This document shows positions 2,254 to 44,406 of a stretch of 64,000 bases of DNA, piece after piece. Positions within the stretch are counted from its first letter, which is position 1. Every line of letters starts with the position of its first letter. Source of the DNA: an uncultured archaeon (GTDB taxonomy: Archaea > Asgardarchaeota > Lokiarchaeia > Sigyniarchaeales > SOKP01). The notes beneath the pieces are model-generated. The model had not been told where the DNA came from and searched no databases. It was given only the letters and a program-made list of their open reading frames with translations. The stretch lies in assembly GCA_964388035.1 (NCBI GenBank), contig CAYLZE010000001.1, forward strand, positions 1-64,000. The letters run 5' to 3'. The translations under genes were made by a program, and so were the position numbers.

Positions 2254-3426
2254 TTAAAAATTTTCTTTGATGAAGTTCTCCACGCGATTTATTCCCATCT
2301 CAATATTTTTAATATCTGTTGGATAAGAAAACCTAATAAATCCCTCTCCATTTGATCCAAAAGCTATTCCGGGACAAGTAGCTACGTGTTCTTTCTCTAA
2401 TAATTGCATGGAGAACTGCTTGCTTGAAATGGGGAGCTCTTTTATATTTGCAAAGATGTAAAACGCTCCTTGAGGGTCCAAACAATTAATCTTTGGAATG
2501 GCCTTTATTCTTTGAACAATATAGTCTTTTCTTTTTCTATATATTTCAAGCATTTCTTTCGTTTCTTTCTCACAATCTAATGCGTGTATAGCGGCAGCTT
2601 GAGAAATTGAGGGAGCACAAATTGCAAAATTTTGTTGAACAGGCAACATTTTATCAATTAATGGTTTAGGACCGAGGATATAACCCAATCTCCAACCGGT
2701 CATCGCCCAAAATTTACTAAATCCGTCCAACACGATTAATTTATCATGACATTTTTTATATTTTATATCACTAAGAGAAGGAGCCACCTTATTATTGTAA
2801 GTTAGTTCCGCATAAATCTCATCTGATATCACCCAGAAATTATTCTTTTCCATGAGATCGGAAATTAGATCTAAGATATCTTCTGGAATAATTTGTCCCG
2901 TTGGATTTGATGGGCTATTTAGGATTAAAGCTTTCGTTTTGGAAGAAATAGCTTGTTTTAACTGATCTGATTCAAAATTAAAGTGATGTTCCTCTTTAAC
3001 AGGTAAAAAAATCGGCTTCCCACCAAAAAACATGATAAAATTTGAATAACAAGGATAACCAGGATCGCTTATGATTACTTCATCTCCGGGATCAATAATA
3101 GTAGAAAGGACATTAAAAAATGCGGGAGAAGTTCCTCCCGTCACCATTATCTCGGTTTTAGGATCATATCTCTTGTTTCTCAACCTGTATTTATAATCTG
3201 AAAGTGCTTCTCTCAAATCTAAGAAACCCAATGAATTCGTATAATGAGTCTTTCCCTCCTTGATATCATCAAAACACCCCGAGATTATTTTGGAGGGAGT
3301 AGCAAAATCTGGCTCACCAATTTCCATGTGAATGACATTTTTGCCTTCTCTTTCCATTTCTAAAGCTCTAGCAAGAATTTCCATTACTAGAAATGTTTTG
3401 ATCGAATCTATTCTTTTAGAAAACAT
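2254..3426 (-). CDS. PLP-dependent aminotransferase class I/II (aspartate aminotransferase-like)
   Basis: IGEPDF, NSPSNPTG, SDEIY, GFSKFWAMTGWRLG (PLP lysine). Confidence 0.95.
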   Translation of the reverse strand: MFSKRIDSIKTFLVMEILARALEMEREGKNVIHMEIGEPDFATPSKIISGCFDDIKEGKTHYTNSLGFLDLREALSDYKYRLRNKRYDPKTEIMVTGGTSPAFFNVLSTIIDPGDEVIISDPGYPCYSNFIMFFGGKPIFLPVKEEHHFNFESDQLKQAISSKTKALILNSPSNPTGQIIPEDILDLISDLMEKNNFWVISDEIYAELTYNNKVAPSLSDIKYKKCHDKLIVLDGFSKFWAMTGWRLGYILGPKPLIDKMLPVQQNFAICAPSISQAAAIHALDCEKETKEMLEIYRKRKDYIVQRIKAIPKINCLDPQGAFYIFANIKELPISSKQFSMQLLEKEHVATCPGIAFGSNGEGFIRFSYPTDIKNIEMGINRVENFIKENF

Positions 3427-3663
3427 TTTTCTGCTAAATTAATTATACTTCGATATAATCTTAATTTAAACAATGGATATTAATGCTGTTTTTGAGTAAA
3501 GTACCAAATTCATGTATTACCTCAATCATCAAATCCAAGAGTGAAATTGGAATCCCTTATAACTCTATTGCGTTTTAATGCTAGACATAAGTGCTCCATG
3601 CTATTCATTTTAAATTTGATTTATGGTAGGTTTTTAATTAAAAAATTACAACGCTTATAGCTT

Positions 3664-4236
3664 TTACTTACGATCTTTCTTCTGAAGAGAAATTCCCTCT
3701 CGGGATATTATAACATCTCCTTCCCCTTCCATAATATTTACATATCGGGATAAAACAAATAAATAGTCGGACAATCTATTTAAATATTTTATGATTTCAA
3801 GATTAACAGTTTCTTGCTTAGAAAGTTTAATAGCGGCCCTTTCTGCTCTACGGCACACCGTTCTTGAAACATGCAAAAAGGCTGCTGATTGCATGCCCCC
3901 TGGAATCACGAAGTTATATGCCTCCGGCATGGTTTGTGACAAGGAATCCATGCTTTTTTCTAATTCAGAAATATCTTCGGGTAATATTTTTTTAATTACT
4001 CTCTTCTCATCCATTGAGGCTAATTCGGATGCTAAATAAAATAATATAACTTGAACATCTTGGATGAGTTTTTGAATTTTAATTGAAGAAAAGGCTTTTG
4101 CTAAACCTAAACTTGCGTTCAATTCATCTACAGTTCCATATGTTTCAACTCGTGGACTTGTTTTGTCTATACGTTCTCCGGAAAATAAATCTGTCTGCCC
4201 CTTATCTCCTCTTCTCGTATATATTGGTTTTACCAT
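3664..4236 (-). CDS. pduO: ATP:cob(I)alamin adenosyltransferase, PduO type
   Basis: IYTRRGDKGQT, YGTVDELNA, RTVCRRAER, YLNRLSDYLF. Confidence 0.95.
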   Translation of the reverse strand: MVKPIYTRRGDKGQTDLFSGERIDKTSPRVETYGTVDELNASLGLAKAFSSIKIQKLIQDVQVILFYLASELASMDEKRVIKKILPEDISELEKSMDSLSQTMPEAYNFVIPGGMQSAAFLHVSRTVCRRAERAAIKLSKQETVNLEIIKYLNRLSDYLFVLSRYVNIMEGEGDVIISREGISLQKKDRK

Positions 4237-36998: not shown

Positions 36999-38000
36999 GT
37001 GAAATTTAAAATGTTTACACCTGAACAAATAAAAGATGTATTAAATGAAAACTGTATAAATCTTCGATTTCATGCGAGAGGCGGTCAAGGAGGAGTTACC
37101 GCGTCCAACTTATGCGTCGAAGCGTTTCAAGGGTATGGCGTATGTCAACCAAGCTTTGGCGCTGAAAGAATGGGCTCCCCTACTGAAAGCTATGTAAGAC
37201 TTTCCTTGAATGAAAATTTAGTTCGATCCAATGAACAAGTGTATGTTCCCCATTTTGTTTCTGTATTGGATCCCACGTTATTAACAGAGGTTGATGTAAC
37301 CGCAGGAGTACCAAGTGGAGGATGGTTAATCGTAAATACTACCATGAATCAAGAAGAAATACAAGATTTGGTAAAGCGAAAGGACTTGAATGTCGCTACA
37401 GTAGATGCCTTAAACATCGCAATGGAAATCTTGGGAAGAAACATTACAAATACTATTATTTTAGGTGCCTTAATCCGTGTATCTTACCTCTTTTCCTTGG
37501 ATCAACTTTCCGAAGCCATCATGACAAGATTCGTGGGAGAAATAGCGGGAAAAAATATGGAAGCAGTGAAACGAGCTTATGATGAAGTATGCGTTTACGA
37601 AAGCGGAGTTCAACTTGATTTCACCGTAGACTCTAAAATTCCTTGGCAACAAGTTCGACCTGGTTTGCCGGGATATAAAGAGCTTGATAAGTCCGGAGTA
37701 TGGTATTGTGATGAAGATGTAATTGAATACGGAAGTAATCAAGTAAAAACGGGATCGTGGGGAGAATGGGATGTAATTTGGATTGAAGATAAATGCACGG
37801 ATTGTGCCCTATGTTGGTATATTTGCCCCGATTTTGCCATCATGAGGAAAAAAGGAGATGATGGTCTGTGGCACATGGCAGGTATTGATTCTTATCATTG
37901 TAAATCTTGTTTAAATTGTCTCAACATTTGTCCTGTAAATGCAATTGATAAAAAATTAAGACAAGGGCCAGCATCATGCGCTGCGCCAGAAAAAGCATAG
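36999..38000 (+). CDS. porC: 2-oxoacid:ferredoxin oxidoreductase gamma subunit fused to delta (2x4Fe-4S) subunit
   Basis: RFHARGGQGGVT, PSFGAERMGSP, NT..LGA; C-terminal KTGSW, CTDCALCWYICPD, CKSCLNCLNICP. Confidence 0.92.
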   Translation: MKFKMFTPEQIKDVLNENCINLRFHARGGQGGVTASNLCVEAFQGYGVCQPSFGAERMGSPTESYVRLSLNENLVRSNEQVYVPHFVSVLDPTLLTEVDVTAGVPSGGWLIVNTTMNQEEIQDLVKRKDLNVATVDALNIAMEILGRNITNTIILGALIRVSYLFSLDQLSEAIMTRFVGEIAGKNMEAVKRAYDEVCVYESGVQLDFTVDSKIPWQQVRPGLPGYKELDKSGVWYCDEDVIEYGSNQVKTGSWGEWDVIWIEDKCTDCALCWYICPDFAIMRKKGDDGLWHMAGIDSYHCKSCLNCLNICPVNAIDKKLRQGPASCAAPEKA

Positions 38001-38010
38001 AGGTGGTATC

Positions 38011-39240
38011 ATGTCTATCGAACCTATGAAGTTATTCTTTAAAGAAATAAAAGAACCTGTCGAAACTGCGATGATAGGAAATTATGCAGTGGCTGGGGCA
38101 GTTACTCAAACGGATCCCGATGTAATTTGTGCGTTTCCTATAACCCCACAAACTCAATCTGTAGAAGGTCTCTCGGATGTCGTTCACCAAGGAAGACTCA
38201 AGGCTGCTTTCGTGAATGTTGAATCTGAACTGGCAGCAATAAGTTATTCTACTGCTGCGAGTGCTGCAGGTGCCAGAGCATTTACGGCGACCGCGTCTCA
38301 AGGTTTTTTATTGATGACAGAAGCCCTTCCCATGGCAGTGGGATGGCGCGTTCCTTTAACCATGATGATTTCAGCACGAGCTTTTAATTCTCCTAATTTA
38401 TCTATTTGGAATTCATGGGAATTTACCGAAGTAAATTCGGAATTGGGATGGAATTGCTTGGTCTCTGAAAATGTCCAAGAAACTTACGATGCAGCAATTA
38501 TATCAGTTATGGTTTCTGAAGATTCCTTATTTCCCACCATGTTTGTCCACGATGGCTTTATCATCTCTCATTCCGTACAAAAACTCTGGCTCATCCCCGA
38601 TGAAATTGTACGAAAAATGACACCAAAGAAACCCCGGCAAACGATTAATCCAGAAAATCCCGGAACATGGGGCGGAATCGTGACTCCGGATTTTTTCATG
38701 GAAGGTAGAAAAAAGTTAGATGAAGATAAAGAAGCGGTATTGGGCATCATGAAAAACTGCTTTAAAACGTTCGAAAAGGAGACGGGGCGCAAGTATGATC
38801 TAATTGAAACCTACAATCTTGATAATTCTTCAAAAACAGCCATCATAACGATGGGGTCAATGTGTGGAAATATTATAAGTTGGATGACGAAAAATCCCGA
38901 TATCGGCTTGATAAAAATTCGTGCCTTTCGTCCATTTCCCTATGCAGAATTGAGGAAAATCGTGGAAGAACACAATATTGAAAAGATCATCATCATTGAA
39001 AAATCAGATTCATTGAATGGAATGCTCCCTCCCTTTTCCATGTCGATTGCTAGCGCGTTATATCCCCTTGGAACTCTTTTCAGGAGCTTCATCGCGGGAT
39101 TAGGTGGGCGAGATGTTACCCGGGACGAATTTAATGTAGCTAAAAAGAAAATGGAAAAAGTAACGGACATGAATGGAAAATTATACATGTATTTAGGGGT
39201 TAGAGAAACAAAACAAAAAATTCACGAGGTTGATGCATAA
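38011..39240 (+). CDS. porA: 2-oxoacid:ferredoxin oxidoreductase alpha subunit
   Basis: FPITPQT, VESELAA, TATASQG, DGF..SH, FRPFP, GLGGRDV; GAGGTGG RBS. Confidence 0.95.
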   Translation: MSIEPMKLFFKEIKEPVETAMIGNYAVAGAVTQTDPDVICAFPITPQTQSVEGLSDVVHQGRLKAAFVNVESELAAISYSTAASAAGARAFTATASQGFLLMTEALPMAVGWRVPLTMMISARAFNSPNLSIWNSWEFTEVNSELGWNCLVSENVQETYDAAIISVMVSEDSLFPTMFVHDGFIISHSVQKLWLIPDEIVRKMTPKKPRQTINPENPGTWGGIVTPDFFMEGRKKLDEDKEAVLGIMKNCFKTFEKETGRKYDLIETYNLDNSSKTAIITMGSMCGNIISWMTKNPDIGLIKIRAFRPFPYAELRKIVEEHNIEKIIIIEKSDSLNGMLPPFSMSIASALYPLGTLFRSFIAGLGGRDVTRDEFNVAKKKMEKVTDMNGKLYMYLGVRETKQKIHEVDA

Positions 39241-40358
39241 TGTCAAAACCAGAAAATAATATCATTAACATGGAAGAAATTCTCGAGAGAAAGGAAAAAA
39301 GTAATGTCTTGTTTGTCAATTATGATAATGAGGCGTTCATGAATACTGGAAATTGAAAAAAAAATATTTTTTCAAACAGAGTTCAAGAATCAGGCGGAAC
39401 GCCTCCACATGCATCCACGACCACGGGTCCTGGGGGAGAAAAGATTCCTGGGAAGGTCGGTGTCAAGCAAGATTTAGTGACTCCATTCAGCTTTTTTGGA
39501 ACTAAATCACTATTTCTGGCCACGGCAAATCCAGCTTATCCCATGGATTTAATGGGAAAAGTAATGGAAGCATTAAAGACGAATGGTTCCGGTTTTATAC
39601 AAATCTTCAGCGATTGCATGCGTGGGTGGCGGCACGGCGCGGAAGACACGCTTAATGTCTCAAAATTGGCGACAGACTGTGGTTATTGGCCCCTTTTTAC
39701 CATTCGAGTTAAAAATGCCAAGCCTGTATATTCTTACTATCGTGGATTAGATGTAGATAAAGAAAAGTTTGAACAATTCTTGAAATCAATGGGTAGATTT
39801 AAACATTTATTTCGTCCTAAATTTATGGAAGAGGAAATAGATGAGATTATCTACTACACGGAACAACGAAATGCCCGATTAAAAGCTTTAATACAAGTGT
39901 TTGGAGCTGAAAAACCTGTAGATATTTATAGAATCAACCGAAAGAAATTAGAGCCTCAATACCATCTCCAACCAGGTCACGGTCTTTGTCCGGGATGCGG
40001 TGCGGGCATGTTCTTGAACCAAATGGCAACCGCAGCCACTCAAGTTGCGGGGAAAAATATTATTTACGTGAATAATACCAGCTGTTCCGAGGTTTCCACT
40101 TCAAAAGACAATGTATCTTCATGGAACGTTCCATGGGTGCATCATCTTTTTGAATCAGGGGCTACTATTGCGGAAGCTATTAGTACAACGTATAAAATTC
40201 TCAAATTTAAAAATATATATCAAGGAGAAGTGCCCTACGTCATACATATCGGAGGAGATGGCTCAACTTATGATATAGGTTTCCAATTCCTAAAATCGGC
40301 TCTCGTTAGGACAAGCAGTTTTGTAGAAATGAATGAATATTTAGCAAATCAAAAATAA
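39240..40358 (+). CDS. porB: 2-oxoacid:ferredoxin oxidoreductase beta subunit, circularly permuted and interrupted by a 30-nt insert containing TGA (39354-39356)
   Basis: ATG 39240 overlaps the porA TAA (TAATG) with GAGGT upstream; same frame as the 39477 ORF; reads NVLFVNYDNEAFMNTG-[N*KKNIFSNR]-VQESGGTPPHASTTT..SDCMRGW..PGHGLCPGCG..TSCSEV..GGDGSTYDIG. Confidence 0.9.
39352..39381 (+). other. candidate 30-nt bulge-helix-bulge/loop mRNA intron in porB
   Basis: stem 39353-61/39367-75; 3-nt bulge AAA 39350-52; helix CUGG 39346-49 with ACAG 39376-79 (3 of 4 Watson-Crick); excision gives in-frame NTGIQ. Confidence 0.6.
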
Positions 40359-40560: not shown

Positions 40561-43134
40561 TTAATTAAAAAATTCTTTAACGATTAACTGGCATAATTTT
40601 ACCATTTTTTGACCTAAATCTTGTTCATCTTGCGAATTAGTTAAGATCCAATCTTTTTGGTATAATTTATCCAAATATTCCCCCTTTGCATCAATAGAGA
40701 AAGCATATACTTTAAAGCGTTTCCTAACGTCATGAATATCATTCATGGCTTCGTTTAAGCCATAATTCCCATCTCCCGCAGGCTGCCCATCCGAAATAAC
40801 AATTATAAAGTCGTCCTTTTGTAGTTTATTAGCTTCATGTTTTATTGAAATCCCGTCTAAATTTTGACAATCATTAGCATGGCTTCCAAATTTGTCCATC
40901 TTCTTAGGATTCAAGGGTTCATCAAAATTTTTTACCAAGATATTTAATGCATCATGTTTTCCCGTGAATAGAACGATCCTTGTATTTGCTAGATATTCTA
41001 AAGCTTCACATAGCAATACAAGAGCAATTTTTGCCGCTTTCATCTTAACCCCTTTCATACTCCCGGAAATATCTACTATAATCAATAATCTTAACTCTCT
41101 CTCAACTGTTTTCTTTGTAAAACATTGTTTATATCTATAATCACTGGTGACTGCCTTAATTAATTTGCTATTTAGCCGTCCTCGCTTCTGAAAAGAATCG
41201 TAGTCTCTCTGATTTTTTAATTCTGCAAAAACTCTTTTAATTTTTTTTATTTGGTTATCATAATTAATTTTCATTTGAGCTAAAGTTAAATCGACAGGTA
41301 TCATATTTTCTTTGTCAATCGTTGTTTCAATTACCTTTCTATCCTTAAAATCTCCTCCTATTTTAAGTACGCGCATCCCTAATTCTAATGTTTTTAATCG
41401 TCTATCCATCTCTTCCTCAGCTTTTTTAAGATTGTCTGCGATCTTTTTTAGTACTTCGACTTTGAATCTATGTCTTTTATCGTTGAGCAATTCCTCAATG
41501 TCAATTTTCTCATCTTTTTCATCAAATAGCTCTAATTGCTTAAAAATGGTTTCAAGTTGTTTGGAATTGAGCTTATCAACGCCTAATTTCTCACAGAGTC
41601 TTTCTTCAAATAAATCCAGGTCAGTTTTAGGATCTCCTTCACTTAGTCCATTATTTTTTATCTCATCTAACTCCATGAAAATATCTTTGAGGTCTTCACA
41701 GGAAATATCGCAATTCTCGAAGGTTTTATTTAATTCTTTAGATAAGTTCTCTAAATTAGACCCATAGTCTAAAGAGCCATTATTACTTCTTAAAAAATCC
41801 TCTTTTTGTTTTAATTCCTGGATATCCGAAATTAAATCATCTAATACCCCGTCTTCCAGATTTAAATCATCAAATTTCTCACGTAGGTTTTTTTTTAGCT
41901 CCTCTAATGCTTCTCTACTTTCAAAATGATTATTTAATAGATCTTGATTTTTTTCAATTTCTTGTAGGAATTCCTTCACTTGATCTGAATTTATCTCATT
42001 TTTATCGTGTGTTTCATTCCAACTTCTGGTGAATTCATCAATATCTTTTTCATAGGACATTTCCTCAGATTGAGATCCATAATAAGTACCATTCTCTCTA
42101 AAATTAGCTAGATCTTCTTCAATTTTCTCTAAATCTTTTGTAGATAAATCATATTCCTCCAAGTTTTTTATCAAATCTTCACTGTATTCTTGTAATTCCG
42201 TTTTTTCCTTGGTTAGCTTGTCAAATGTATTATTCTCAAATTGTTGGCTTTCATTCCAACGGGTTAAAAGATCAAAGTCTTCCATTGGGTTGCCCTGCTT
42301 TGGATTATCTTCATAGTTATAATATATTTCTCCATCCTCAATTTCAGATTCCATATCCTCCTCCCCTTCCTCAGGAACCATCGGGATAGGATAAGATCTC
42401 GATCCTCCGCCTGAACTAGACCCTGAACTTCCAGGAACACCTCTAACTTGAGGAAATTGATTAACTTTTCGTTCGATTTTTTTTGGAAAATATTTCTTTA
42501 AGATATTGCAAAGTTTATAGACGGAAAGTAAGGTCACGTTAGGAGTACGGAATTTTATGATAAACTTTTTGATATTAACAACGGAATTCCAATCTGAAAT
42601 ACTAATCTTAAATGGACCTAAATTAGGAATAGTCAAAAATCCTTCAAAATCCTCCATGAACAAATAGATGTAAGTTACAATATCTTTTAATTTTACAATT
42701 CTCGATTTAATTATGGGGATTAGTGTCAACTCTAAATTTCTCAAGTTTCTATAAAAACCGGGAAACTTTTTATCATTTATTGCATTAATCCTAACGTCTT
42801 CTACTACATTGACTAATTGTCGTACAAATCCCGAAGGTAAATCAAATTTCTTAGAAACTACCGCGACTAACTTGGCAAAATTTAATTCGAATGACCCATA
42901 ACCCACATGTCCTGCTTCATGGGCAACCAATCCCTGACTTCCTTTGATATCTTCTTTATACTTTTGTGGAATATAAATAATTCTACAGTCAGTAAAAGCA
43001 GCATAATCGTTTCGTAAATAAGAAATGAGAATATCTTTATTACCACTGATTCTCTTTGCAGTATTTGTAAGGGCTAGTAAATCAGTATTTACATCTCGCT
43101 CAAATAAATCAAATAATCCTAATTCTTTAAACAT
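40561..43134 (-). CDS. vWA-domain protein (NorD/CbbO/CobT-like) with N-terminal HExxH domain and acidic repeat linker
   Basis: AHEAGH, NVVEDVRIN, GRLN, MIDAS DISGS, ISDGQP. Confidence 0.88.
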   Translation of the reverse strand: MFKELGLFDLFERDVNTDLLALTNTAKRISGNKDILISYLRNDYAAFTDCRIIYIPQKYKEDIKGSQGLVAHEAGHVGYGSFELNFAKLVAVVSKKFDLPSGFVRQLVNVVEDVRINAINDKKFPGFYRNLRNLELTLIPIIKSRIVKLKDIVTYIYLFMEDFEGFLTIPNLGPFKISISDWNSVVNIKKFIIKFRTPNVTLLSVYKLCNILKKYFPKKIERKVNQFPQVRGVPGSSGSSSGGGSRSYPIPMVPEEGEEDMESEIEDGEIYYNYEDNPKQGNPMEDFDLLTRWNESQQFENNTFDKLTKEKTELQEYSEDLIKNLEEYDLSTKDLEKIEEDLANFRENGTYYGSQSEEMSYEKDIDEFTRSWNETHDKNEINSDQVKEFLQEIEKNQDLLNNHFESREALEELKKNLREKFDDLNLEDGVLDDLISDIQELKQKEDFLRSNNGSLDYGSNLENLSKELNKTFENCDISCEDLKDIFMELDEIKNNGLSEGDPKTDLDLFEERLCEKLGVDKLNSKQLETIFKQLELFDEKDEKIDIEELLNDKRHRFKVEVLKKIADNLKKAEEEMDRRLKTLELGMRVLKIGGDFKDRKVIETTIDKENMIPVDLTLAQMKINYDNQIKKIKRVFAELKNQRDYDSFQKRGRLNSKLIKAVTSDYRYKQCFTKKTVERELRLLIIVDISGSMKGVKMKAAKIALVLLCEALEYLANTRIVLFTGKHDALNILVKNFDEPLNPKKMDKFGSHANDCQNLDGISIKHEANKLQKDDFIIVISDGQPAGDGNYGLNEAMNDIHDVRKRFKVYAFSIDAKGEYLDKLYQKDWILTNSQDEQDLGQKMVKLCQLIVKEFFN

Positions 43135-43164
43135 GATCCCTCAATCATTCCATGTATTCTGTCT

Positions 43165-44406
43165 TTAAAGTACGGGAAATGTTGTTCTCATCAATTCTGT
43201 TAATTCCGCATTCATTTTTCGATATAGCCATTTAATGTATTTTAAAGTGATATTGCCAGCATAGATATGAGTTTTCCCAGTTTGCTGCTTGTACATATTA
43301 TGATAACCTAACTCTTCTGTTAGTTTTATGTATTCCTGCAAGATTTTCTTATTATATGACCAGATCCATTCCAACGGAGTCCAAATTATTTTCCCGCTTC
43401 GATTCGTAATGGATCTATAATTGTTGTTTTTTCTATAATTATGTAACCATAACCGCATTTCTCCTATTACGTTAGAGTTTTTGTCTGATTCCTCTAATTT
43501 AATGGAACTTTGAATCTCTTCCTTAACCTCTTTTTTAACTATTAATTCATCCTTGAGTTTTTTTTCCAGCATCTTCCCATCGAGTATCATCGCAATGCTT
43601 TTCTTTTCCTCAGTATTTTCAGCTAATCTATTAATGATAGCATTTTCGATATTGCACTTGATATATTGTGGCTCCATACGGGTTATTAGATAGCAGAAAT
43701 TTACAATCAGTCGTGTGGAAAAGATTTTGGTTAAGGAGAAATCTTCGAGGGCTTGTTTTCTAATTTCTCTTGCCGCATCTACCACGACCTCAGCAATTCG
43801 AGAACTGCAGCCTGAAATCCGAGAAGCAATGAGAATCTCCTTGTTTTTATCGGGATAATTTATCTCGGGGCTTGCAATAAAGCGATCATCAAATGCTTCC
43901 TGCAATTTATTAATTCCTATCACCCCCTTATTCATGGTACCAATGACAATCAACTTGCTTTCTGAGTTAAGTTCATACTTTTCAAATCCTTTGGAGATGA
44001 GGTTGATATGGTTCTCTGATAAGAGTGAATTAAGAGAAATCTGTTCACTCTCTCTAATTGCATTAACTTCATTTATAATTACAAAAGAAATTCCATTCTC
44101 ATTCGCAGATTTTATTGCTAATGTGAGTGGACCATAATTAAATAGTGTATTTCCCTTGATCAATTCCCAATTCCCTTCTATATCTCTTCTGTCAAGATCA
44201 GGAGAGCCATCAATGATAAAATAAGGTGCATTAAAGTCCTTTGCTAAAGTTATTGCTAATAACGTCTTGCCAGTTCCAGGAGGCCCATGCAATAGAATAC
44301 CTGCACACCTCCCTGGTTCCAATGATTCTATTAAACATTTTAAATAATCAAATTCGTCTTTTTGTTGAATATATTTTGGAGCTTTAATTATTGAAGCTTC
44401 TAACAT
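43165..44406 (-). CDS. MoxR/CbbQ/NorQ-like AAA+ ATPase
   Basis: LLHGPPGTGKT, GPL..A, IGTMN, L.EAF.DRF, YPD...E, STR. Confidence 0.9.
   Translation of the reverse strand: MLEASIIKAPKYIQQKDEFDYLKCLIESLEPGRCAGILLHGPPGTGKTLLAITLAKDFNAPYFIIDGSPDLDRRDIEGNWELIKGNTLFNYGPLTLAIKSANENGISFVIINEVNAIRESEQISLNSLLSENHINLISKGFEKYELNSESKLIVIGTMNKGVIGINKLQEAFDDRFIASPEINYPDKNKEILIASRISGCSSRIAEVVVDAAREIRKQALEDFSLTKIFSTRLIVNFCYLITRMEPQYIKCNIENAIINRLAENTEEKKSIAMILDGKMLEKKLKDELIVKKEVKEEIQSSIKLEESDKNSNVIGEMRLWLHNYRKNNNYRSITNRSGKIIWTPLEWIWSYNKKILQEYIKLTEELGYHNMYKQQTGKTHIYAGNITLKYIKWLYRKMNAELTELMRTTFPVL

Follow-up and report, generated by a model that had tools for sequence, protein, structure and literature searches.

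A PorB gene with its halves in permuted order and an intron-like insert in a Lokiarchaeial 2-oxoacid:ferredoxin oxidoreductase operon

Can the PorB subunit of a 2-oxoacid:ferredoxin oxidoreductase (OFOR) be encoded with its two halves in exchanged order, with the break inside its thiamine diphosphate (ThDP) motif, and still serve as a beta subunit? This question is raised by positions 39240-40358 of a 64,000-nucleotide stretch of DNA (the window; contig CAYLZE010000001.1, assembly GCA_964388035.1) from an uncultured archaeon of the class Lokiarchaeia (order Sigyniarchaeales, SOKP01). A preliminary description, made from the sequence alone, had proposed that this region encodes a circularly permuted PorB. 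As presented below, the permuted order is conserved in Lokiarchaeia, together with invariant catalytic residues and a conserved operon. The gene, referred to here as cpPorB, is a true natural circular permutant of PorB that is very probably maintained as a functional beta subunit, with a putative intron in this genome.

Permuted order of the PorB halves

As seen in the coordinates listed below, cpPorB occupies a single frame from the ATG at 39240 to the TAA at 40356-58, which gives a 372-residue product when read through (P0001), and there is no stop between the two halves. The parts of the gene, all on the forward strand, are the following.

39240..39351, +: predicted exon 1, a 20-residue N-terminal extension followed by the strand NVLFVNYDNEAFMNTG, the second half of the ThDP/Mg motif
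39352..39381 (39351-39380 equally possible), +: candidate mini-intron of 30 nt resembling the bulge-helix-bulge (BHB) type, with the only in-frame stop (TGA, 39354-56) and the hairpin TTGAAAAAA/TTTTTTCAA
39382..39878, +: first part of predicted exon 2, the remaining canonical C-terminal half (QESGGTPP...SDC(M)RGW...GRFKHL) with the fourth cluster Cys at 39615-17; NF008819 positions 115-295 map to 39282-39878, and residues 117-287 of 9bt4_C align here
39879..39938, +: linker from the old C-terminus to the old N-terminus, being the gap between the two profile stretches; it overlaps the linker FGAEKPVDIYRINRKKLEPQY of the preliminary description, at 39900-39962
39939..40325, +: canonical N-terminal PorB half (CPGC, TSC, WNVPWVHHLFE, GGDG and the following helix), matching NF008819 positions 5-122 and 9bt4_C 5-116
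40326..40358, +: lineage-specific C-terminal tail (ending MNEYLANQK) and TAA, delimited by sequence comparison

Along this frame the motifs stand in the order YDNE (39321-32), SDC(M)RGW (Cys at 39615-17), CPGC (39987-98, within PGHGLCPGCG), TSC (Cys at 40083-85) and GGDG (40251-62), with HHLFE between TSC and GGDG. Two alignments place the halves. The NCBIfam PorB profile NF008819, a hidden Markov model (HMM) of 300 positions, matches residues 14-214 with its positions 114-296 and residues 234-362 with its positions 5-122, corresponding to 39282-39878 for the C-terminal half and 39939-40325 for the N-terminal half. The C-terminal part of the profile therefore comes first, and the canonical order was not obtained. 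When a profile of 65 homologues was compared with all PDB sequences, residues 5-116 of the Methanosarcina acetivorans PorB (9bt4_C) aligned with query residues 228-348 and its residues 117-287 with query residues 21-198; the beta subunit of oxalate oxidoreductase (OOR; 5c4i_C) was likewise matched in swapped order. In the alignments to NF008819 and 9bt4_C, every PorB segment is present once in cpPorB, with none duplicated and none lost.

Both new termini fall inside the ThDP motif GDG-X~25-N(N), in the loop that links the helix after GDG (canonical ...LSGAFERG) with the strand HDITYVCVDNE. The old C- and N-termini are bridged by about 20-30 residues, and lineage-specific extensions of about 20 residues at the N-terminus and about 14 at the C-terminus have been added. 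The motif order, the single uninterrupted passage between the halves, the break between GDG and YDN and the linker, all of which had been claimed in the preliminary description, are thus borne out by the alignments. Its further claim that the four Cys of the proximal [4Fe-4S] cluster (CxxC, TxC and C..GW) are retained also holds: they are C240, C243, C272 and C116 (P0002 numbering). These Cys, G329-D330-G331 and YDNE are invariant in 65 of 65 sequences.

Two profile scores weigh against an assignment to PorB. The whole-protein score for NF008819, summed over two stretches, is 196.4 bits against a cut-off of 405, and the score for Pfam TPP_enzyme_C (PF02775) is 15.6 bits against a threshold of 21.9. 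These low scores are attributed to the permuted order, not to divergence of the parts. The contiguous motif GDG-X(24-27)-N(N) of ordinary PorB is absent as well, with GDG at residues 339-341 and (Y)DN at residues 28-30 of the 372-residue read-through product.

Conservation, operon and predicted fold

The preliminary description had left it to be checked whether related genomes share the permuted order. Of 40 relatives from the same order, 33 have a full-length colinear homologue without stops (identity 52-85%), and single-contig genomes account for three of these. Across 301 genomes sampled evenly from the phylum, colinear full-length homologues occur in 66 genomes and are essentially confined to the class Lokiarchaeia, closed genomes included. 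By family, the permuted gene is present in 57 of 68 genomes of f1, 6 of 7 of f2 and the single genome of f5, all belonging to the same class. It is absent from the 26 other families of this sample, save for one match in f26. That match is a 2.8-kb contig (G231:C23:1-2801) carrying porGD, porA and cpPorB, 79-85% identical to the f1 genes, in a bin with 8% contamination, and the contig is most likely mis-binned.

Since the genome of the window is a metagenome-assembled genome of 211 contigs with 7% contamination, the permuted order might be suspected to be an assembly or binning artefact, such as a collapsed tandem duplicate or a chimeric contig. However, more than 60 genomes assembled independently of one another, the three single-contig genomes among them, have the same colinear order at 52-85% identity. 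Because the order is conserved while the sequences diverge, this explanation can be dismissed for practical purposes. Many metagenome contigs from JGI, ENA, NCBI and Logan also have the same colinear order. Among 1.84 billion library representatives, colinearity with the query is shown by a single full-length sequence (P0122) and by some fragments. The other full-length matches in the library align in two stretches that stand in canonical order, and a few proteins of half length cover a single half each.

No tandem-duplicate or split-gene intermediate was found in this library or on the contigs of the half-length candidates. Some PorB-like proteins of half length begin precisely at this break (P0189, P0268 and others); they were considered as a possible split gene and gave no evidence for a real split: P0189 begins 8 nt from a contig end, and P0268 sits in an odd 3.6-kb contig. 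In a tree of the sequences un-permuted in silico together with 62 canonical representatives, the permuted proteins form one clade (Shimodaira-Hasegawa-like approximate likelihood ratio test, 100) on a stem of 1.0 substitutions/site. The clade is placed inside the PorB/VorB-type radiation, apart from the two canonical PorB genes of the same genome, and has a single origin. The ratio of nonsynonymous to synonymous substitution rates (dN/dS) between cpPorB and a same-genus copy is 0.042, with dS saturated. By region, dN/dS is 0.03-0.07 in the halves, while the linker gives 0.07-0.6 and the terminal tails give 0.13-0.34. The gene is under purifying selection, and the linker is less constrained than the core.

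In the window, 36999-40358 comprises three genes in one orientation, porGD, porA and cpPorB, and the ATG of cpPorB at 39240 overlaps the stop codon of porA (TAATG). The two upstream genes are the following.

36999..38000, +: porGD, fused gamma (POR) and delta (2x[4Fe-4S] ferredoxin) subunits, 333 residues; Pfam POR 2.6e-26 and Fer4 domains
38011..39240, +: porA, alpha subunit (POR_N and PFOR_II), 409 residues; Pfam POR_N 6.7e-56 and PFOR_II 1.3e-13

The operon is conserved wherever flanking DNA could be read. In 17 of the 19 relative loci read, and also in L037 (the f26 match) and L038, porA adjoins cpPorB, and the position of porGD upstream of porA is kept in relatives. Two PorB genes of canonical order exist in the same genome (G000:C10:21909-22790 and G000:C5:81147-82019), each with a separate alpha-subunit gene beside it, so the permuted enzyme is one OFOR among several and not the sole one.

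Several loci depart from this layout. In L024 (G003:C3), a 1.4-kb AT-rich spacer (2584-4007) without any open reading frame of at least 100 residues separates porA from cpPorB. In L029 (1-915), and also in L030 and L031, there is no porA within 1.1 kb upstream of cpPorB, which is preceded by the end of an 842-residue product containing a LAGLIDADG_3 domain. The same three loci carry a fragment 74% identical to cpPorB residues 327-361 (L029:3017-3121), about 800 nt downstream of cpPorB. In L035 (549-2630; G178:C34), a 715-residue open frame contains PorA residues 1 to ~354 and then continues in frame with cpPorB, beginning at its residue 20, which represents either a natural alpha-beta fusion (a deletion of ~220 nt) or an assembly artefact. 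The metagenome contig L039 (424-1992) reads from PorA residues 1-225 directly into cpPorB residues 93-358 and is a deleted or chimeric copy, and the copy in L040 (303-1163) is truncated, beginning at cpPorB residue 76. Downstream of cpPorB in the window, 40561-44406 on the reverse strand encodes an 857-residue protein with a long acidic coiled middle and a 413-residue P-loop (GPPGTGKT) ATPase.

The AlphaFold2 model of cpPorB, built from the 65-sequence alignment, is one compact domain with a mean predicted local distance difference test (pLDDT) of 81 and a predicted template modelling (TM) score of 0.87. The top Foldseek match of this model is 9bt4_C, with TM scores of 0.41/0.50 covering half of the model. 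VIA alignments reach Z 10.4-12.5 over 170-185 residues within model range 10-209, with separate weaker matches for 225-362. Aligners that respect chain order match one half at a time, as is expected of a permutant. With PorA, cpPorB was modelled at an ipSAE of 0.83, compared to 0.00 for the best of three controls; the mark applied is reached by 58 of 80 solved complexes and by 2 of 110 mismatched pairs. The runs share at least 95% of contacts, and the partner pLDDT is at least 82. Since alpha/beta complexes of this family have already been solved, this result may reflect likeness and not proven binding. The structure prediction suggested in the preliminary description is thus favourable for the alpha-beta pair, with that qualification. 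As expected of a PorB, cpPorB is encoded with alpha, gamma and delta subunits and is predicted to bind alpha.

These observations suggest that 39240-40358 encodes the beta subunit, carrying the pyrophosphate-binding (PP) domain and the proximal [4Fe-4S] cluster, of a PorABGD-type OFOR. Its chain would start at the YDNE strand with the second Mg/diphosphate ligand and run through the old C-terminal half. It would then cross the linker into the old N-terminus with CPGC and TSC, and end just past the helix that follows GDG, the first Mg ligand. The motif GDG-X~25-DN would accordingly be assembled in space from the two chain ends, not from one loop. In all, cpPorB is inferred to fold like canonical PorB, to bind PorA, ThDP/Mg and the cluster, and to be catalytically active. 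The point in the models that speaks against this is the low confidence of the segment wrapping ThDP, residues 32-70, where pLDDT falls below 50.

A conserved protein of this kind could also be a non-catalytic, structural or regulatory paralogue, for which the long stem of the clade (1.0 substitutions/site) and the lineage-specific terminal extensions might be cited. However, the Mg/diphosphate ligands (GDG and DN) and the four cluster Cys are all invariant, and the gene is placed behind its own porGD and porA. The VESE segment of the PorA partner, presumably the Glu region of the pyrimidine (Pyr) domain, is invariant as well. A non-catalytic role is consequently regarded as very unlikely, and a catalytic beta subunit is preferred.

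The insert near the new N-terminus

The cpPorB gene of the window reads ...NTG-N*KKNIFSNRV-QESG..., while its relatives read ...AFMNTG-I-QESGGTPP.... The insert is in frame, being a multiple of three, and has a hairpin of 9 bp. Removal of 39352-39381 restores the invariant MNTG-I-QESG and the frame. A frameshift as the cause of the interruption near the N-terminus was ruled out, as the frame is unbroken and holds a single TGA. Translational bypassing of the T4 gene 60 or 'byp' type was rejected because the take-off and landing codons would be GGA and AGA, which differ. A miniature inverted-repeat transposable element or other repeat was also rejected, since a search of the genome allowing 3 mismatches gave no further copy. 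Among 19 relatives, 18 further homologues are permuted and lack an insert, so insert and permutation are independent. Their co-occurrence, which the preliminary description had listed as unexplained, is thereby explained as coincidence.

Comparable inserts are found in relatives. In G004 the site used in the window holds an insert of 31 nt, with a different, compensating stem. L029, L030 and L031 have a 31-nt insert 7 nt downstream of the window site, and the insert of L033 measures 43 nt and lies about 20 nt further downstream. None of these (31, 31 and 43 nt, in L027, L029 and L033) is a multiple of three, and removal restores both frame and motif. Each has its own hairpin and helix/bulge flanks. 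Three candidate intron sites fall within about 25 nt, in different lineages, in the segment coding for MNTGIQESGGTP. Truncated homologues were also examined as extra carriers, and only L029-31 and L033 added candidate introns; L032 and L036 end at contig ends, and L039 and L040 look like deletions or chimeras.

In the minimum free energy (MFE) folds, the inserts show an outer helix, a central helix of 3-4 bp and an inner hairpin, and the predicted cut sites are unpaired. A canonical BHB has 3-nt bulges at both splice sites, separated by 4 bp. The fold of L029 comes close to this geometry, with UCCA/UGGA and bulges AGU and AAA. For the window insert the MFE fold has z = -3.1, and its 5' side fits a BHB (CUGG, bulge AAA, 9-bp stem). 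The machinery required for splicing is encoded in the genome: two EndA genes (PF01974) score over the cut-off, in C146 and C33, and one RtcB gene is present in C23. The EndA genes (G000:C146:8374-8598 and G000:C33:37874-38122) are separate, each product having ~205 residues, and two such paralogues would fit a heteromeric endonuclease of broad specificity.

A number of features are unfavourable to a BHB intron. At the 3' splice site of the window there is no clean 3-nt bulge in the MFE fold, and helix H has 3 bp and a G.A mismatch. The outer helix also competes. Outside the window the z-scores are weaker, and two of four folds are no better than shuffles (z -0.95 to -1.5). Even so, the sequence features taken together make it likely that the 30-nt insert is a tRNA-type mini-intron. 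EndA would cut it out and RtcB would rejoin the exons, giving ...MNTG-I-QESG....

Two other explanations of the TGA have to be weighed against a mini-intron. In the first, the TGA would be decoded as selenocysteine or tryptophan, or read through, and the 10 extra residues would be a real protein insertion, as the length in multiples of three and the kept frame might allow. Such an insertion would, however, split the invariant ThDP-contacting MNTG-IQESG. Moreover, the homologous insert of G004 has 31 nt, shifts the frame and contains TAG and TAA stops, and the other open reading frames listed around the gene are normal under table 11. Decoding of the TGA is thus considered highly improbable.

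In the second, the family would be functional in relatives and the window copy would be a recent pseudogene with an unspliced 30-nt TGA insertion, its function being covered by the canonical PorB operons. The TGA indeed lies amid the invariant NTGIQESG, and the gene caller gave only a 264-residue fragment (P0089). The 3' side of the BHB in the window is non-canonical, as noted above, the genome has canonical PorB genes at C10 and C5, and truncated or deleted copies exist in other contigs (L039 and L040). However, the 362 codons outside the insert are all open despite saturated dS, with a dN/dS of 0.04. Random inactivation would not be expected to yield the inserts of other lineages (31, 31 and 43 nt), which lie at this site or close to it, carry hairpins and restore frame and motif on removal, and the splicing machinery (two EndA and RtcB) is encoded. 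A pseudogene therefore appears unlikely, though less remote than the decoding of the TGA, and the mini-intron remains the preferred explanation.

On balance, we lean towards the view that Lokiarchaeia possess a dedicated OFOR whose ThDP/Mg site is closed by the ends of a permuted beta chain, an arrangement for which no precedent has been described in ThDP enzymes. Production of the enzyme from this genome would depend on prior removal of the mini-intron from the mRNA by the tRNA-splicing machinery, and the MNTGIQESGGTP segment would be a recurrent landing site of introns.

Relation to known systems

The cpPorB proteins are labelled 'hypothetical' at NCBI. Because the order is permuted, Pfam misses the subunit and the NCBI label remains, so that the complex looks beta-less. 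This matters as OFORs are central to anaerobic carbon and amino-acid metabolism, and as Lokiarchaeia are among the closest prokaryotic relatives of eukaryotes, whose metabolic reconstructions feed models of eukaryogenesis. The family is also a natural experiment indicating that the signature ThDP motif need not be contiguous, and it offers a ready design for split or permuted ThDP domains. The window copy adds a metabolic gene that seemingly needs tRNA-type splicing of its mRNA, and the recurrence of introns in one short conserved segment bears on intron gain in archaea.

Full-text literature searches with circular permutation and OFOR/PFOR (pyruvate:ferredoxin oxidoreductase) terms returned nothing relevant, in agreement with the preliminary description, which knew of no described natural permutation of this subunit. 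Neither 'permut' nor Asgard or Loki occurs in a review of PFOR diversity from November 2026. What is new in the window is the intron-like insert inside a permuted gene and the clustering of such sites in the MNTGIQESGGTP-coding segment.

A BHB intron reportedly occurs in the cbf5 pre-mRNA of Crenarchaeota. The candidate introns of cpPorB resemble it as short hairpin inserts in coding sequence with helix/bulge flanks, whose predicted excision by tRNA endonuclease restores the frame. They differ in gene and phylum, in a length of only 30-43 nt, and in having several sites within about 25 nt of a single gene, each in a different lineage. Archaea with endonucleases of relaxed specificity also have two EndA paralogues.

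The closest known protein is the M. acetivorans PorB (9bt4_C; NF008819), which is homologous over its full length at about 28-40% identity per half. It shares with cpPorB the four cluster Cys, the GDG and (Y)DNE-MNTG ligands and the GRFxHL tail, and its gene likewise follows porA in an operon with gamma and delta. In cpPorB, unlike in this protein, the halves are swapped, the ThDP motif is split between the two ends, terminal extensions are present, and gamma and delta are fused. The PP fold and cluster site are also shared with oxalate oxidoreductase beta (Moorella thermoacetica 5c4i_C) and with domain VI of homodimeric PFOR (Desulfovibrio africanus 1b0p; M. thermoacetica 6cin). Compared to the cpPorB model, these give VIA Z values of 10-12.5 over about 170-185 residues, with HMM E-values of 3.9e-55 and 2.4e-12, but all have the canonical order. 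To our knowledge, the diversity of the OFOR/PFOR family consists of fusion, fission and the order of whole domains, and we know of no cut inside domain VI.

Natural circular permutants exist in DNA methyltransferases, transaldolases and swaposin, where the termini are joined and new ones are opened in a surface loop. The usual explanation is a tandem duplication followed by loss of both ends. These proteins have other folds, and cpPorB is cut instead inside the signature motif for its cofactor.

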